Assembly: GCA_042577285.1 (NCBI GenBank) | Contig: JBHPDM010000003.1 | Span: 825 to 64,824 of the forward strand | DNA from: Candidatus Omnitrophota bacterium | GTDB taxonomy: Bacteria > Omnitrophota > Gorgyraeia > Gygaellales > Profunditerraquicolaceae | Direction: 5' to 3' | DNA: 64,000 nucleotides | Shown here: positions 2,952 to 63,417 of the stretch, piece by piece | Layout of the letters: the number at the start of each line of letters is the position of its first letter | Numbering within the stretch: position 1 is the first letter of the stretch | The notes under the pieces: generated by a model | Told to the model about the DNA's origin: nothing | The model's database searches: none | The model's input: only the letters and a program-made list of their open reading frames with translations | Program-made: the position numbers and the translations under genes

Positions 2952-3712
2952 TCAGGCTCAGGGATGCCGGGCAGAACTGTTTATACAATGCCGCAGGCTT
3001 GAGCATTAAAGAGGGTGAGCATGTCATCGTCGAACATGACCGGGGGCTTGATTACGGGCAGGTCATTTCTCCGAAGAACCGGGCCCAGGAGAAGTCAAAG
3101 GAGACGCTAAAGAAGGTGGTGCGGTTGGCCACAGAGAGCGACCTCAGGCAGATCGCCGATAACCGCTGCAAGGCAAAGAGCGCTTTTAATGCCTGTATTA
3201 AAAAGATCGAAGAGCATAAGCTGGATATGAAGCTTGTGCGCGCCGAATACTCTTTTGACCGGACAAAGATCATATTTTATTTTACCGCCGAAGGCAGGGT
3301 GGATTTTCGCAGCCTTGTGAAGGACCTGGCCAAGATCTTCAAGGCGCGCATCGAATTAAGGCAAATCGGAGTAAGGGATGAGGCAAAGATGTTCGGCGGA
3401 TTCGGGCCCTGCGGCAGGGAGCTTTGCTGCGCGAAGTTCCTTAAGGACTTCGAGCCGGTGACGATCAAGATGGCCAAGGAAGAGGGGTTACCCTTAAATC
3501 CACCCAAGATCTCCGGGTTGTGCGGGAGGCTGATGTGTTGTCTTTCCTTTGAATACGAGACCTACAAGTCCTTATCAAAGGGGCTTCCCCGCGAGGGGGA
3601 ACGCGTCGCCACCCCCCAGGGTAAAGGTAAGGTCATAGGAGTGAATGTGTTTAAAAGAACGGCTACGGTTCAACTGGAGAGCGGGATTCAGGTAGAGGTG
3701 TCGTATAAGTAG
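2933..3712 (+). CDS. PSP1 domain protein (YaaT/RicT-like)
   Basis: PSP1 C-terminal domain pattern (EYSFDRTKIIFYFTAEGRVDFRSLVKDLA) and a Cys cluster (GPCGRELCC..GLCGRLMCC). It sits in the usual position after holB. Confidence 0.8.
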   Translation: MESKILIRLRDAGQNCLYNAAGLSIKEGEHVIVEHDRGLDYGQVISPKNRAQEKSKETLKKVVRLATESDLRQIADNRCKAKSAFNACIKKIEEHKLDMKLVRAEYSFDRTKIIFYFTAEGRVDFRSLVKDLAKIFKARIELRQIGVRDEAKMFGGFGPCGRELCCAKFLKDFEPVTIKMAKEEGLPLNPPKISGLCGRLMCCLSFEYETYKSLSKGLPREGERVATPQGKGKVIGVNVFKRTATVQLESGIQVEVSYK

Positions 3713-3719
3713 AAAAAAG

Positions 3720-5237
3720 ATGGAGAATAAATTTTATATAACTACGCCTTTGTATTACGTCAATGCCGCGCCTCATATCGGGCATTCCTATACTAATATC
3801 GCAGCTGACGCCCTGGCGCGCCAGAGGCGCCGGATCTTAGGGGATAAAAAGGTTTGGCTTCTCACCGGTACTGACGAGCACGGCGAGAAGATCCAGAAGG
3901 CCTCCGTTGATAAAGGTCTAGAACCTCAGGCCTTCACTGATAAGATGGTTCTTCAGTTTACGGGTCTCTGGAAAAAGCTGGATATATCACACAACGATTT
4001 TATCCGTACCACCGAAGAGCGGCACATCAGGTGCGTGCAGAGGGCCTTAGAGATCCTGCATAAAAACGGAGATATCTACAAAGATAAATACCAGGGCCGA
4101 TACTGTACGCCCTGTGAGACGTTCTGGACTGATGCGCAGGCGCCGGAATCACTTTGTCCTGACTGCAAACGGCCCGTAGAAAGGATCGCCGAGACTAATT
4201 ATTTCTTCAGGCTATCAAAGTATCAGCAGTGGTTGATCAAATATATCGAGGAGCATCCCGGTTTCATCAAGCCAGATATCCGGCGTAATGAGGTGCTAAG
4301 TTTCCTGAACTTAAATGAATTAACTGATCTTTGTATCTCACGGCCTAAGGAGCGTTTAAGTTGGGGGATACCGGTTCCCTTTAGCCCTGATCACGTGGTC
4401 TATGTCTGGTTTGATGCCCTGATAAATTATATCAGTGCCGTAGGTTCTTTTGACGCTAAGGGTAAATATAGCTCCAAGTGGTGGCCGGCAGACCTGCATC
4501 TTATCGGTAAGGATATCTTAAGACAGCATGCGATATATTGGCCGATCATGCTGCGCGCGCTTGATATAGAGTGCCCGAAGACTATATTCGCCCACGGCTG
4601 GTGGATGATCGGCGAAGATAAGATGTCCAAATCGCTGGGAAACGTCACCTCCCCAGTCGACATGGTAAATGAATTCGGCATTGATGTATACAGGTATTTC
4701 CTGTTGCGTGATGTATCCTTTGGTCTTGACGGGAACTTCTCAAGAAATGCGATTATCAAGCGGTTCAACAGCGACCTGGCCAATGACTTGGGCAACTTGG
4801 TCTACAGGACGCTGACTATGTGCGAAAAGTATTTTAAAGGCGATATCCCTGTTGCCTTGGATACGATTAAAGATAAACATGCAGAGGCGATCCGTGAGAA
4901 GATCGCGCATCTTAATGAGGAGATCTCCTCCGGCAGAGGCTTAGGCGGACCGGATTTTGATTTCAGTCATCCCCTTGAGAAGATCTGGGAATTGATCAAT
5001 ATGGCGAATAAGCATATCGAAGATACTAAGCCCTGGAATCTTGCCAAAGAGAACAAGACAGAGGAGCTCAAGGGATTTATCGCTCTTTTATTGGCAGTGA
5101 TCAGAGAGGTCGCCCATCAGATCGCGCCTTTTATGCCGCGGACAAGAGAGGCTATCGTTAAGCAGATCGGCAGGGATAAGATCAAGAAAGGAAAACCGTT
5201 ATTTCCCCGCATAGATAATAAAACTCCAGGCTCCTGA
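3720..5237 (+). CDS. metG: Methionine--tRNA ligase (short form)
   Basis: HIGH motif (APHIGHSYT), KMSKS (DKMSKSLGN) and a CxxC..CxxC zinc knuckle (CTPCE..CPDCK). Confidence 0.95.
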   Translation: MENKFYITTPLYYVNAAPHIGHSYTNIAADALARQRRRILGDKKVWLLTGTDEHGEKIQKASVDKGLEPQAFTDKMVLQFTGLWKKLDISHNDFIRTTEERHIRCVQRALEILHKNGDIYKDKYQGRYCTPCETFWTDAQAPESLCPDCKRPVERIAETNYFFRLSKYQQWLIKYIEEHPGFIKPDIRRNEVLSFLNLNELTDLCISRPKERLSWGIPVPFSPDHVVYVWFDALINYISAVGSFDAKGKYSSKWWPADLHLIGKDILRQHAIYWPIMLRALDIECPKTIFAHGWWMIGEDKMSKSLGNVTSPVDMVNEFGIDVYRYFLLRDVSFGLDGNFSRNAIIKRFNSDLANDLGNLVYRTLTMCEKYFKGDIPVALDTIKDKHAEAIREKIAHLNEEISSGRGLGGPDFDFSHPLEKIWELINMANKHIEDTKPWNLAKENKTEELKGFIALLLAVIREVAHQIAPFMPRTREAIVKQIGRDKIKKGKPLFPRIDNKTPGS

Positions 5238-5254: not shown

Positions 5255-6016
5255 ATGCTTATAGATACACACTGCCATTTAGACTTTCCTGATTTCGACC
5301 GGGACAGGGAAGAAGTGATCGCCCGTTGCAGAGAGCAGGGCATAAGTCATATTGTAAATATCGGTTCCAGCCTGCGCGGCTCTAAAGATTCCCTCGCCTT
5401 GGCCAACAGCTGCGATTTTGTATATGCTACCGTCGGTTTACACCCGCATGAGGCGGATAGTTTTAATGAAAAGATACCCGTTGTTCTCTCACAGCTCGCC
5501 CGGGAGGAAAAGGCGGTTGCTATCGGGGAGATAGGCCTGGATTACTTTAAGAATTATTCCAAGCAGGATAATCAGAGAATATTATTCAAGAGCATGCTTA
5601 AACTGGCAAAGGCGGCCGGTTTACCGGTTGTGATCCACAACCGTCAGGCCCAGGAGGATACGTTAAAGATCATAAAAAGCTTTATGCCCCTTAAGGCGGT
5701 AGTGCATTGTTTTTCGGGTGATCAGGATTTTTTAAGGGAATGTCTGGATCTGGGGTTTTTTGTTTCTTTTACCTGTAACATCACCTATAAGAAGGCAGAG
5801 AAGTTAAGGGCTCTGGTGAAAACTGCGCCGCTTGAAAGGCTCTTCCTTGAAACTGATGCGCCATTCCTTCCGCCGGAGGGGCTGCGCGGGGCGAGGAATG
5901 AACCGGTCTATGTAAAGAATCTTGCAGAGGAGATCGCCAGGATCAAGGGCTTAAGTTTTGAGGAAGTAGCCAGAATTACCACAGAAAACGCAAGGGAATT
6001 CTTCGACTTAAAATGA
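5255..6016 (+). CDS. tatD: TatD family metal-dependent hydrolase/DNase
   Basis: N-terminal IDTHCHL, GEIGLDY and a VIHCFSG-like motif (VVHCFSG) typical of TatD/YcfH. Confidence 0.9.
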   Translation: MLIDTHCHLDFPDFDRDREEVIARCREQGISHIVNIGSSLRGSKDSLALANSCDFVYATVGLHPHEADSFNEKIPVVLSQLAREEKAVAIGEIGLDYFKNYSKQDNQRILFKSMLKLAKAAGLPVVIHNRQAQEDTLKIIKSFMPLKAVVHCFSGDQDFLRECLDLGFFVSFTCNITYKKAEKLRALVKTAPLERLFLETDAPFLPPEGLRGARNEPVYVKNLAEEIARIKGLSFEEVARITTENAREFFDLK

Positions 6017-24326: not shown

Positions 24327-24737
24327 GGGGGTGAAAGGGTTCGACCTGAGTAATCAGGGTAAGAGTAGCATGCCGCGGACGCAGGGTTGGCCGCGTTAAC
24401 AATCCTTGCACAATATAAACGCAAACAGAACATCGTTAAACCGCGTTTTTGCACAGCAGCCAGTAATGGTTGCTGCGCCTTTCGCGGGCGTTCCAGTCTT
24501 CAGCCCCCAGTAGGGTTGAAGCCTCTATCCATCCTGCCTACGGGTTGAAATAGAGACTACAGTAGGATAGCTTCGGTAAATTAGCCTTTGGGGCCGAAGC
24601 GAAATTTTAAAAGGCTGCGCTTTGCAAATCCTGCCCTGTAGGAGTTGCAAAGTCAACTTTAATATGCAGGGCTAAGCATGTAGCGGCTTTTATTCTATTA
24701 TCCAGGGACGCCGGTTCAACTCCGGCCACCTCCACCA
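24327..24737 (+). ncRNA. ssrA: tmRNA (transfer-messenger RNA)
   Basis: The 5' end GGGGGTGAAAGGGTTCGAC and the 3' end GGACGCCGGTTCAACTCCGGCCACCTCCACCA form a tRNA-Ala-like acceptor and T-arm. The gene follows smpB. Confidence 0.9.
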
Positions 24738-24742
24738 AATTT

Positions 24743-24944
24743 TTCCGACAAGGAAAAATTTGGTGGATGCCAAAACGAGCGTAGCGAGGCGACAAGCCGA
24801 GCAGCGAGTGTGGCGCCACCACCGTTTTTACCATTTCCGACAAGGAAAAATTTGGTGGATGCCAAAACGAGCGTAGCGAGGCGACAAGCCGAGCAGCGAG
24901 TGTGGCGCCACCACCGTTTTTACCATTTCCGACAAGGAAAAATG
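24743..24944. repeat. Perfect 92-bp tandem direct repeat, 2 full copies plus a 17-nt third start
   Basis: The units 24743..24834 and 24835..24926 are identical by eye. The third copy (24927..) shares TTCCGACAAGGAAAAAT and then becomes the amidase ATG. Confidence 0.85.
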
Positions 24945-53734: not shown

Positions 53735-53838
53735 AAAAAGGGACGCTCTTTTTGCTAAGGCGGAAACTGTCCCCTTATCCACAAGGGCTGTGGACAAAAG
53801 GGACACTTTCCCGATTGGCAAAAAGAGCGTCCCTTTTT
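53735..53838. repeat. Nested-palindrome element, copy 1 (about 104 bp)
   Basis: Outer 21-bp perfect arms AAAAAGGGACGCTCTTTTTGC / GCAAAAAGAGCGTCCCTTTTT. Middle arms GGAAACTGTCCC / GGGACACTTTCC. Inner arms TCCACA / TGTGGA. Homologous to 58803..58902. Confidence 0.9.
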
Positions 53839-53860
53839 ATACGCCAGAGACGTTTTTGTA

Positions 53861-53887
53861 TTGACAGGGGGGATTTGGTGGTATAAT
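53861..53887 (+). promoter_or_regulatory. Promoter with an extended -10 (TTGACA ... TGGTATAAT) for the ECF sigma operon
   Basis: TTGACA at 53861, TG at 53879-80 and TATAAT at 53882..53887. The ATG follows 9 nt later, which implies a leaderless or near-leaderless mRNA. Confidence 0.5.
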
Positions 53888-58791: not shown

Positions 58792-58802
58792 CCAATATCC
58801 AT

Positions 58803-58902
58803 TAAGGGACGCTCTTTTTGCTAATCGGGAAACTGTCCCTTTTATCCACAGGGGATGTGGATAAGGGGACACTTTCCGCTTTAGCAAAAAGAGCGTCCCT
58901 TA
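58803..58902. repeat. Nested-palindrome element, copy 2 (about 100 bp)
   Basis: Outer 22-bp perfect arms TAAGGGACGCTCTTTTTGCTAA / TTAGCAAAAAGAGCGTCCCTTA, with the same middle and inner arms as copy 1. Confidence 0.9.
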
Positions 58903-58911
58903 GAATTGGGA

Positions 58912-58939
58912 TTGACAGGGGGCTTGTGGGTGTTATACT
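58912..58939 (+). promoter_or_regulatory. Promoter (TTGACA, 16-nt spacer, TATACT, with upstream TG) preceding the histidine kinase leader
   Basis: It shares ATTGACAGGGGG with the sigma-factor promoter at 53860. Confidence 0.5.
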
Positions 58940-58997
58940 TTATCCGTAAGTAAAGAAGGCGGGTAAAATGAGTTTCATTTGATGGGTTTTAGTCTTG

Positions 58998-59034
58998 AAA
59001 GCAACTTTCCGGTTCCGGGGGGTTGCTTTTTTCT
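58998..59034 (+). terminator. Terminator/attenuator-like hairpin in the kinase leader
   Basis: AAAGCAAC..(16 nt)..GTTGCTTT followed by TTTTC, 17 nt before ATG 59051. Confidence 0.4.
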
Positions 59035-59050: not shown

Positions 59051-60508
59051 ATGAGACAGCAGGTCAAAAATATTAAAGAGGCCTTACGCGATTCAGACAG
59101 GATGTACCGTACGTTATTCGATATGGCAAACGATGCCATATTCGTTGCTGACGCTAAAACGGGGATACTCATAGATGCGAATAAGAAAGCCGAGATGCTG
59201 CTTGGCCTGTCGCTCAGGAAGATCATAGGCATGCACCAGGCAAAATTACACCCCAGAAGAGAGATCGAACATTATAAAAAACTATTCAGAAAAGATGTTC
59301 GTAAAGGTAAAGGAGTTATAATCGATGTTATTCTACGCGGTAAGGGCGGGATCGAGATCCCCATAGAGATCAGCTCTACTGTGATGCAATTAGGGGACAG
59401 AAAACTCATCTTGGGTATCTTCCGGGATGTTACTGAGCGCAAAAAGATAGAGGAGATTTTAAGGTACAGCGAGGCGCGCCATCGTTCTGTGGTGGAGGAT
59501 CAGGTTGATCTGATCTGCCGTTTTAAACCGGATGGGAGGATCACCTTCGTAAACAAGGCATATTGCAATTATTTCGGTAAGAAACGCGAAGAGTTAATGG
59601 GAAAAAGTTTTATGCCATTGATCGTAGAAGATGACCGCAAGAAAGTAGCAAAACGCATCGCTTCGCTCAGTAAGAAGAGTCCGGTAGCCAGGGTCGAGGA
59701 GCGGGTTATATTGCCCGATGGTGAGGTACGCTGGCAGCAGTGGATCGACCGGGCAATATTTAATAAAAATGACCGAGTCGTCGAATACCAGGCAGTAGGC
59801 CGTGACATCAGCGAGCAGAAGACGATAGAGGAAGTCAGAGATAATCTTATCCGTGGCGTCTCGCATACTCTGAAGTCGCCGCTTGCGGTCATGGAGATGG
59901 CCTATGGAAGCCTAAGGAAGGGGATGAAGTCAGAAGATGCGCAGCGGATAAAGAGGTCTGAGAAGATCATGCTCGATAGCCTTCAGAAGATCCGCCATGA
60001 TATCGATAACATCCTGAATATGCTTGTATTAAGTAAGCATAAACATTTAGCTGGAAAGGCAAAAACTTATTTAAGACAGACCATTAATAAGATCATCCGT
60101 AACTTCACGTATATTATCAATGAAAACGATTTTAAGATCAAGATCGACATCCCAAAAGAGGCTGAAAGAATCGCAGTGCATCCCAGGGAAGCCCAGATCC
60201 TTCTTTCTAATATCATTGACAATGCGATAAAGTTTACCGAGCGCGGGATAATCAAGATAAGATCCCGCCTGAAGCAAGGCCTTATCGAGATAAGAATAAC
60301 CGACACCGGCTGCGGGATAATCCCCAGAAACAGGGAGAGGGTCTTTGACAGCTTCTTTAAGCGCCACGAGGCGCTTTCCGGGACAGGACTTGGCCTGACG
60401 ATCTGCCGGGAGATAACCAACAGATATAAAGGTAGTATCAAAGTCATTTCAGGCGGGAAGGGTAAAGGAACTACGGTAGTAGTGACATTGCCAAAAGGAG
60501 GTAGATGA
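59051..60508 (+). CDS. PAS-domain sensor histidine kinase (cytoplasmic)
   Basis: Two PAS-like segments, H-box VSHTLKSPL, and N and G boxes (DNAIKFT, DTGCGI, GTGLGL). Confidence 0.9.
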   Translation: MRQQVKNIKEALRDSDRMYRTLFDMANDAIFVADAKTGILIDANKKAEMLLGLSLRKIIGMHQAKLHPRREIEHYKKLFRKDVRKGKGVIIDVILRGKGGIEIPIEISSTVMQLGDRKLILGIFRDVTERKKIEEILRYSEARHRSVVEDQVDLICRFKPDGRITFVNKAYCNYFGKKREELMGKSFMPLIVEDDRKKVAKRIASLSKKSPVARVEERVILPDGEVRWQQWIDRAIFNKNDRVVEYQAVGRDISEQKTIEEVRDNLIRGVSHTLKSPLAVMEMAYGSLRKGMKSEDAQRIKRSEKIMLDSLQKIRHDIDNILNMLVLSKHKHLAGKAKTYLRQTINKIIRNFTYIINENDFKIKIDIPKEAERIAVHPREAQILLSNIIDNAIKFTERGIIKIRSRLKQGLIEIRITDTGCGIIPRNRERVFDSFFKRHEALSGTGLGLTICREITNRYKGSIKVISGGKGKGTTVVVTLPKGGR

Positions 60509-60891
60509 TGGTTTCCCTAGCAGGCAAGGCGAAGAAAATCCTTATTGTCGAGGACGACCGGGGGATGCAACAGATATACAGGGATATGTTCAAGGAGCGC
60601 TCCAGGAATTATACCATTGAGATCAAGGATGATGCCGAGTCAGCTATAAAGAGGCTCGAACAGGAAGCCTTTGACCTGATCATCTTGGATATCATCATGG
60701 AGCCGATGGGCGGAGATTCCTTCTTTGTCTACCTCAGGCGCGGAAAGATGCTTGATGTCCCGATCCTTGTGGTCAGCGTGCTATCTCCCAGCTCGCTGAA
60801 GAATCTAAAGAAAATCGACCACGTCAGCTTCCTGCAGAAACCGATCAAGGAGGATCAGCTTTTTAAAAGAATCAAAGAGATCTTAAAGTAG
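60505..60891 (+). CDS. Single-domain response regulator (receiver only)
   Basis: ILIVEDD, the phospho-Asp context LIILDIIMP-like LIILDIIMEP, and a conserved K (LQKP). Confidence 0.88.
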   Translation: MMVSLAGKAKKILIVEDDRGMQQIYRDMFKERSRNYTIEIKDDAESAIKRLEQEAFDLIILDIIMEPMGGDSFFVYLRRGKMLDVPILVVSVLSPSSLKNLKKIDHVSFLQKPIKEDQLFKRIKEILK

Positions 60892-60912
60892 GCGCGCACC
60901 CGTACGTCTTGC

Positions 60913-63189: not shown

Positions 63190-63417
63190 ATAAGTGAGGC
63201 CACAGCTTATGGAGCGTAAGCGAACATAAGCTGTAAGGCCGAACTTATCCCGAGTCACAATCGAAAATAATATTAGTGACGAGGGATCCCTCGCAACAGC
63301 AGATTGATAAACGGTTGCTCGGGATTAATTCGCGCTTATAACTTACTCACACTTGCCGCACAAGCGGCACACCGGCTGTTCCAATACAGCCGAGTGTCGT
63401 GTTCGTAAGTTATGCGC
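63190..63417 (+). other. Candidate structured RNA / long 5' leader (four consecutive hairpin domains)
   Basis: Hand-paired hairpins at 63190..63248, 63248..63286 and 63288..63323, plus a branched domain at 63332..63417. The domain ends just before the AAGGAGG SD of the downstream gene. Confidence 0.35.

Follow-up and report, generated by a model that had tools for sequence, protein, structure and literature searches.

A probable REP-dimer-like palindromic repeat at gene 3' ends in an Omnitrophota genome

The 64-kb stretch of Omnitrophota DNA analysed here (the window) carries two homologous palindromes of about 100 bp. Copy 1 lies between hppA and an operon headed by an ECF sigma factor gene, copy 2 between a gene for a PKD lipoprotein and an operon coding for a PAS kinase and a response regulator with a receiver domain. 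These gene names, proposed in a preliminary description made from the letters alone, agree with the source annotation and with Pfam. The two palindromes likewise lie where that description had placed them, and the block AAGGGACGCTCTTTTTGCTAA is identical in both (Table 1).

An element is built from two 36-nt units, AGGGAC-N24-GTCCC[C/T], inverted around a short spacer; the layout of the window copies is 36 + 24 + 36 nt. The inner arm of a unit is a box, GGGGACA[C/G]TTTCC (also written as GGGGACASTTTCC), and the left inner arm of copy 1, GGAAACTGTCCCC, is the G variant of this box in inverted orientation. The preliminary description is also right about the middle arms, GGAAACTGTCCC and GGGACACTTTCC, with their C.C mismatch, and about TCCACA-N5-TGTGGA as the apical stem. 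The outer arms had been called perfect, which fails for copy 1 at one T.G position (GCTAA / TTGGC), and the distances to the promoter core ATTGACAGGGGG measure 21 and 8 nt instead of 22 and 9 nt.

Table 1. Coordinates of the palindromic elements and adjoining features. Positions refer to the window, except in the last three rows, where they refer to the contig named.
Feature	Position	Strand	Remarks
Copy 1, whole palindrome	53735..53838	.	includes the A5/T5 extension; 9 nt past the hppA stop codon
Copy 1, left 36-nt unit	53739..53774	+	AGGGAC-N24-GTCCCC; outer AGGGACGCTCTTTTTGCTAA, unpaired GGC, inner GGAAACTGTCCCC
Copy 1, apical hairpin	53778..53794	.	TCCACA-AGGGC-TGTGGA; inside the 24-nt spacer between units
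Copy 1, right 36-nt unit	53799..53834	+	inner GGGACACTTTCC (C-variant box), unpaired CGA, outer TTGGCAAAAAGAGCGTCCCT
Remnant of a degenerate right arm	53846..53858	+	AGAGACGTTTTTG; orthologous to GCACAAGAAACGTTTTTG of the sister strain
Sigma-70-like promoter, ECF sigma operon	53861..53887	+	TTGACA, 15-nt spacer, TGgTATAAT; beside the element, not part of it
Copy 2, whole palindrome	58803..58902	.	11 nt past the PKD-lipoprotein stop codon
Copy 2, left 36-nt unit	58805..58840	+	AGGGACGCTCTTTTTGCTAA-TCG-GGAAACTGTCCCT
Copy 2, apical hairpin	58844..58862	.	ATCCACA-GGGGA-TGTGGAT
Copy 2, right 36-nt unit	58865..58900	+	GGGGACACTTTCC-GCT-TTAGCAAAAAGAGCGTCCCT
Promoter after copy 2	58912..58939	+	TTGACA-16-TATACT, upstream TG; beside the element, not part of it
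L236 dimer	5337-5412		spacer 4 nt
L237 dimer	4892-4998		spacer 12 nt; left arm tandemly duplicated
L239 dimer	3009-3084		spacer 6 nt

Copies 1 and 2 are by far the longest local palindromes of the window, and no other comes close. Each arm contains the 16-mer GGGACGCTCTTTTTGC once; these four occurrences are the only ones in the window, where 0.73 would be expected even if three mismatches were allowed. Copy 2 matches the reverse complement of copy 1 at 90.8% and copy 1 read directly at 85.9%. Folding as RNA, proposed in the preliminary description as a check, gives -63.1 kcal/mol for copy 1 and -69.4 kcal/mol for copy 2 (z = -9.2 and -13.3); folding as DNA gives -38.2 and -40.8 kcal/mol (z = -10.4 and -13.2). 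Each copy thus forms an interrupted hairpin of ~45 bp, with z ranging from -9 to -13, and as RNA the minus strands fold as strongly as the plus strands. A search with Rfam covariance models returned only sub-threshold miRNA-precursor noise at copies 1 and 2 and no match at the gathering score. A single 36-nt unit has a stem of its own of 6-7 bp (-5 to -7 kcal/mol, z about -2). Since the lone unit folds marginally, the long hairpin of the dimer appears to be the dominant structure, and the half-unit is weakly supported as a REP hairpin in its own right.

The position of the palindromes, 9-11 nt after stop codons, together with the A5 and T5 runs that flank copy 1, recalls an ordinary intrinsic bidirectional terminator that is merely long, and a more distant relative (contig L113) has a plain hairpin and a T-run at the same place after hppA. 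However, a T-run follows the stem in only one of the six full dimers (copy 1, T5) and is missing at copy 2, at the copy 3 site considered below and in the dimers of L236, L237 and L239. Moreover, 100 nt of common sequence is not a feature of terminators that serve unrelated genes, and a stem of ~45 bp is three to four times the usual length. We regard this explanation as improbable; the very long bidirectional terminator or insulator of the preliminary description can at most be a secondary role of the element.

Because several reading frames stay open across the element, protein collections were searched with its translation. A single match was obtained, the FolC protein MFC1804707.1, whose final 36 residues are the element in frame. 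The organism name, and an accession series close to that of the window (MFC1804426-438), indicate that this protein is encoded in the source MAG. With it, the number of full dimers in the source genome rises to at least three: one follows hppA, one follows the PKD gene and one is at the 3' end of folC. Alignments of other FolC proteins cover only ~92% of MFC1804707.1, so these proteins appear to be devoid of the tail. Scanning a collection of genome contigs with the bare 16-mer GGGACGCTCTTTTTGC gave 111 matches, none of them in the context of an element and none with a partner arm at fewer than 5 mismatches.

A sister strain (GCA_042570405.1), whose flanking DNA is 94-98% identical to the window, retains remnants only at all three sites. 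At folC it has one 36-nt unit, AGGGACGCTCTTGCGATTAGCAAAAAGAGCGTCCCT, equivalent to a 60-nt deletion between similar direct boxes. Its FolC tail is accordingly 20 residues shorter (a 16-residue version; L115 11326-11374), and mnmE starts 4 nt past the folC stop codon. This single unit fits recombination between the direct boxes GGGACGCTCTT... and GGGACACTTTC..., which would collapse dimers to monomers. At the second site, 39 nt stand in place of window 58795-58905 and align to the right half of the element only, the remnant CACTTTCNGCTTT matching at 12 of 13 positions. The first site is rearranged and the contig breaks there: divergence sets in exactly at the hppA stop codon, a related arm, TAGGGACGCTTTCTTTGCTAATCGG, follows, and the contig ends 88 nt on. 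Another contig begins upstream of the sigma gene; on it, the same promoter is accompanied by the tail of an additional ORF and by a further arm-like hairpin. Units and remnants are present at five places in this strain, further single 36-nt units among them. These comparisons show that dimers decay to monomers or remnants within strain-level divergence. Two sister contigs (L112 6967-7022 and L114 9013-9068) end in the same 56 nt, GGGGACACCCCGCCGATTAGTTGATTGGGTGTCCCTTTTATTTTTGTTGCAATTTG, from which it appears that the repeat family breaks short-read assembly.

The sister strain is also informative with respect to the two promoters. Both are present there without intact elements. In the window they are paralogous over ~50 nt, the degenerate arm remnant included (AGAGACGTTTTTG falls within this promoter-bearing segment), and ATTGACAGGGGG is found at these two places only. 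Their retention in the sister strain and their paralogy indicate that the promoters form a separate duplicated segment. The PAS-kinase/response-regulator operon is a strain-specific indel, missing from the sister strain, in which a VanZ gene is driven directly by the same promoter as the one after copy 2. An 11-nt direct repeat, TAAAG[A/T]AGGCG (58951-58961 and 60884-60894), brackets the 1.9-kb segment with the PAS-kinase and response-regulator genes. The leader between the promoter and the PAS-kinase start at 59051 contains a terminator-like hairpin with a T-run (58997-59030), which could be an attenuator.

These observations bear on the proposal that a dimeric regulator binds the palindrome as its operator and so controls the ECF sigma and the PAS-kinase/response-regulator operons together. 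Both window copies do lie 8-21 nt upstream of similar promoters, and their four GGGAC cores are spaced 24/26/24 nt. Yet both promoters persist in the sister strain, where the elements are not intact and the PAS-kinase operon is missing. Copy 3 sits between folC and mnmE, the latter starting 4 nt on, with no promoter after it, and the elements of L236, L237 and L239 precede different promoters that do not contain TTGACAGGGGG. The proposal is therefore unsupported, and we consider it highly improbable. A shared palindrome beside two promoters, it must be noted, need not mean a regulon operator.

In three relatives whose HppA proteins are 83-84% identical (contigs L236, L237 and L239), a dimer lies directly past the hppA stop codon within the same hppA-sigma-CHAT synteny. 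The preliminary description had allowed that only the two window copies might exist, with no conservation in relatives; the third copy in folC and these orthologous dimers contradict this. The three dimers have no apical hairpin, no mismatch and no T-run after the stem. At the post-hppA site of L238 there is a different gene and no element. In an alignment of four sequences, 95.8% of cells are paired, compared with 39-56% when the partner is slid by 1-3 columns as a control, and 12 of 39 pairs have changed on both sides. With L239 added by manual alignment, the paired fraction is 93.3% and compensatory changes affect 13 of 33 pairs. No change across orthologues is seen in the AGGGACG/CGTCCCT ends or in the TGTCCC/GGGACA cores, and the unpaired AATCGG and GCTTTAG are common to copy 2, L236 and L237. 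Judged from these alignments, the arms of the post-hppA element change by compensation while its GGGAC cores stay fixed. L239 has a second box structure upstream of hppA (734-812), AGGGACACCC..GGGGACACCC..GGGTGTCCCC, with CAATCG beside the boxes.

The column of the mismatch reads G-C in L236 and L237, C-G in L239 and C.C in both window copies; the translation of copy 3 is compatible with the C.C state. The window version combines the left-arm letter of one box variant with the right-arm letter of the other, and a single unit elsewhere in the sister strain carries the same left-arm variant, GGAAACTGTCCCC. Because letters of two variants are mixed in this way, the C.C mismatch was probably inherited from one hybrid progenitor. 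Together with the common outer arms and the apical hairpin, it points to spread within the genome from a single source. The conserved internal mismatch, on which the preliminary description laid some weight, is thus real, but descent from the hybrid progenitor explains it without independent conservation. The interior of copy 1 (53762-53811) is inverted with respect to that of copy 2 (58828-58877), L236 and L237, as can be told from the unpaired 3x3 loops and from the sequence on either side of the apical stem. Such a flip should give G.G, yet the sense strand has the C.C and a G-rich apical loop in each of the three genomic copies.

It is conceivable, though on balance unlikely, that the element is a host cis-acting 3'-UTR RNA (a processing site, a stabiliser or an atypical terminator) that was kept after hppA and copied by segmental duplication or gene conversion with no transposase involved. 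The post-hppA orthology across relatives with its 12-13 compensatory pairs, the conserved letters of the unpaired loops, the sense-strand C.C and G-rich loop of three copies despite the flipped interior, and the co-orientation of every copy with its upstream gene would all fit such a function. However, both strands fold equally well, no Rfam family matches, L238 does without the element, and a strain that is 94-98% identical has lost or halved it at three of three sites. A host RNA also accounts poorly for the 12-13-nt box, which is dispersed over organisms of 37-72% G+C, where its neighbours are unrelated genes, and which brackets a RAYT-like gene.

That box was found in at least 120 metagenome contigs, of 37-72% G+C among the matches listed. 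The scan used the pattern GGGACASTTTCC-N10-40-GGAAASTGTCCC, for which the at least 120 matches compare with a chance estimate of ~1 per 10^12 bases. The 122 hairpins listed divide into 74 with GACAG/CTGTC and 48 with GACAC/GTGTC; no hairpin combines both variants, though the pattern permitted mixing. The genes beside the metagenome hairpins are unrelated, and none recurs except in duplicate assemblies. The flanks of the 122 listed hairpins show no enrichment of GTAG/CGTC, and the hairpins of 20 metagenome loci gave no match in Rfam. The outer-arm pattern AGGGACGCTYTYTTTGCYAANNNGG had no match in the metagenome and viral scans; hence the outer arm appears to be lineage-specific. Full-text literature searches with the box sequence retrieved unrelated primers only, and the supplements of PMC3733652 hold no matching sequences.

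On one contig, L169, box hairpins bracket an ORF of 196 aa. It matches the Pfam family Y1_Tnp (PF01797) at 48.5 bits (cut-off 23); its best NCBIfam model is REP_Tyr_transpos, at 60 bits and under the model cut-off of 80. The ORF carries the motifs NHVH, WQ and YVDLNP (subclass-2.1-like), and its hairpins agree with the inner arm of copy 1 at 18 of 18 positions. The orientation of the box differs: its GGGG ends face the loop in the Omnitrophota clade, while in the hairpins around the L169 transposase gene they lie at the stem base, as they do in all 122 metagenome hairpins listed. The clade itself has a RAYT-like gene, at 11807-12520 of L236; its product of 237 aa matches the E. coli TnpA_REP 4ER8 best among PDB entries, and the hairpin that flanks the gene, CCTTATCGCACCGCGTAGGTGCGTA, is a different one. 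A tblastn search of the 64-kb window revealed no gene for a Y1 transposase. The box GGGGACACTTTCC occurs five times within one intergenic region of L113.

This intergenic region, between a Sortilin/BNR-like gene and a thioredoxin gene, is a hot spot (L113 12681-12803, L114 8960-9068, L236 11757-12526). L113 has its five GGGGACACTTTCC boxes here, the sister strain has two GGGACACCC...GGGTGTCCC hairpins where a contig ends, and L236 has the RAYT-like Y1_Tnp gene with its flanking CCTTATCGCACCGCGTAGGTGCGTA; in the source genome the region lies just past the window end. The L236 repeat is loosely like [GTCCCC]TTATCCACA-N5-TGTGGATAA, the apical part that is unique to the window lineage. In metagenome loci such as L198, L210, L222 and L234, a high-G+C family of 62-nt hairpins, GGGGACAGTTTCCGC...GCGGAAACTGTCCCC, is bracketed by direct repeats of GACTGTCGCGAACGTT, which suggests that it is part of a larger composite element or a site-specific target.

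Of the ideas put forward in the preliminary description, a MITE-like mobile palindrome comes closest to the evidence, as regards the dispersed family, the third copy, the units and remnants in the sister strain and the box shared with hairpins of a RAYT-like gene; it hardly stands in the sense of a classical MITE. Such an element would be a deletion derivative of a DDE-type IS, moved by way of its 21-bp terminal inverted repeats. Conserved terminal arms with a divergent interior are the usual MITE pattern, and here all copies have the same outer arms, in the form of perfect 21-bp repeats, whereas the interior differs by 9-14%. However, there is no target-site duplication at the six dimers, and no IS with these ends is found in ~0.7 Mb of related sequence. 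The palindrome also extends over the whole length and not over the ends alone, and the arms co-vary between orthologues rather than staying constant as a transposase-binding sequence would. An origin as a classical MITE is accordingly improbable as well.

Several known types of sequence were considered and rejected. An integron attC site came to mind from the structured palindrome that lies behind a gene and has an extrahelical or mismatched base; against it, RYYYAAC/GTTRRRY core sites are missing from the boundaries, and the outer stem measures 21 bp. The NusB/E boxA motif CGCTCTT in the outer arm is lost from the arms of the sister strain and of the orthologues. Spacings do not fit sigma-54 or ECF promoter readings of the box. 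As a DNA-uptake sequence, the box would be too sparse (only ~1 pair per 10-30 kb), and it is associated with a transposase gene.

In our view the palindrome is probably a repeat of a REPIN-like or REP-dimer-like kind, with a further role as a 3' hairpin. The comparisons above show a small dispersed family, with each full dimer situated at a gene's 3' end or shortly beyond it. The two inverted 36-nt units would allow a single strand of DNA or RNA to fold into one long interrupted hairpin. A RAYT-type transposase, acting in trans on the folded single strand, may copy the family within the genome, with the invariant cores and loops as its putative recognition determinants. The lineage-specific version, with its outer arms GCTCTTTTTGC, the C.C hybrid and the apical hairpin, would have arisen once and then spread from site to site. 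In the tail of the upstream mRNA, the hairpin may act as a 3'-end barrier, that is, as a stabiliser, a partial terminator and possibly an RNase III substrate, a role that would separate the upstream gene from whatever follows.

Some observations fit this REPIN-like reading less well. The 64-kb window encodes no Y1 transposase, and three full copies are documented in the genome. Neither a target-site duplication nor a GTAG/CGTC tag is evident. The orientation of the box is opposite to that in L169 and in the 122 metagenome hairpins listed, and the RAYT-like gene of the clade, in L236, is flanked by another hairpin, CCTTATCGCACCGCGTAGGTGCGTA. Single 36-nt units barely fold (-5 to -7 kcal/mol), and long-term orthology with compensation fits a host-selected RNA structure equally.

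A bolder model can be offered only tentatively, as we deem it unlikely. It assumes that group-1 RAYTs (TIRYT, subclass 2.1) of different phyla recognise GGGGACA[C/G]TTTCC as a common module and that the Omnitrophota dimer is a domesticated derivative. Its cores and the unpaired AAUCGG/GCUUUAG loops would bind protein, and the sense-strand C.C and G-rich loop would be selected as RNA, so that a REPIN would be turning into a host 3'-UTR element. If true, this would run counter to the current view that this RAYT class has no REPIN populations.

The probable REPIN-like identity of the element would be of interest on several counts. It concerns a structured, co-varying family of dimers in Omnitrophota, a largely uncultured phylum, and ties it to a 12-13-nt box that brackets a RAYT-like gene and occurs in contigs of 37-72% G+C among the matches listed. 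The box offers a concrete DNA substrate for asking what subclass 2.1/group 1 RAYTs recognise. In practical terms, short-read assemblies break at the element, as sister-strain contigs end inside it, and annotated proteins, FolC being an example, acquire spurious C-terminal extensions from it.

Two further repeats were seen elsewhere in the window. A direct tandem repeat of ~92 nt (24743-24900) immediately follows the tmRNA gene (24327-24737). The first 16 nt of the repeat, GGAAAAATTTGGTGGA, pair with the 3' end of the tmRNA and recur at 24844-24859. This tandem repeat may have been left behind by an element that integrated at ssrA, or may represent a repeat array. At 63227-63345, in the intergenic region upstream of the Sortilin-like gene, there is an inverted repeat with 28-nt arms that are 79% complementary and 63 nt apart.

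REPINs were reportedly described by Bertels and Rainey in 2011 as two inverted REPs mobilised by RAYT tyrosine transposases. The Omnitrophota element resembles REPINs and REP dimers in its two inverted units with a short variable spacer (4, 6, 12 and 24 nt here), in its large stem-loop, and in its place downstream of ORFs and occasionally at a protein C-terminus. Other shared features are singlets that result from the decay of dimers, persistence at orthologous sites and heterodimers of unit variants. REP dimers are indeed known to form one large stem-loop, to lie downstream of ORFs, to occur as heterodimers and sometimes to encode the COOH end of a protein (Di Nocera et al. 2013, PMC3733652). 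Unlike REPINs, the Omnitrophota element has no GTAG/CGTC tag, the flanks in the window, the sister strain and the orthologues being AT-rich and variable; its single units are very weak palindromes and its documented copy number is low (three full copies). REP/REPIN-type repeats and their tyrosine transposases have been studied chiefly in Proteobacteria and in a few other phyla.

The comparison extends to the terminal inverted repeats of TIRtrons. RAYT-like TIRYT genes are flanked by inverted repeats that share GGGGWSAS and occur as singles, dimers and clusters, and the TIR families are only moderately abundant, in a few genomes (PMC3733652). TIRYT corresponds to TnpA_REP subclass 2.1 (RAYT group 1), with the flanking consensus GGGG[AT][CG]A[CG] and no REP-like structures reported near its genes (Quentin et al. 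2018, PMC6006769). The inner arms GGGGACAC and GGGGACAG fit this consensus exactly; the former is found in the right inner arm of copy 2 (that of copy 1 reads AGGGACAC) and the latter is complementary to the left inner arm of copy 1. As with TIRs, singles, dimers and clusters are found, and an identical 12-18-nt box brackets the Y1_Tnp gene of L169. In contrast to TIRs, the Omnitrophota box is inverted relative to the loop and is set between lineage-specific outer arms.

Other long palindromic repeats offer a parallel in format. The Correia elements of Neisseria and the ERIC/IRU sequences of enterobacteria are intergenic repeats of 100-150 bp that are palindromic over nearly their full length. 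They are co-transcribed with their neighbours, form long RNA hairpins and are polymorphic for presence or absence between strains; Correia elements, in addition, are associated with a TA duplication and with IHF and promoter functions. The Omnitrophota element bears no sequence relation to either, but it shares with both a similar palindromic format.
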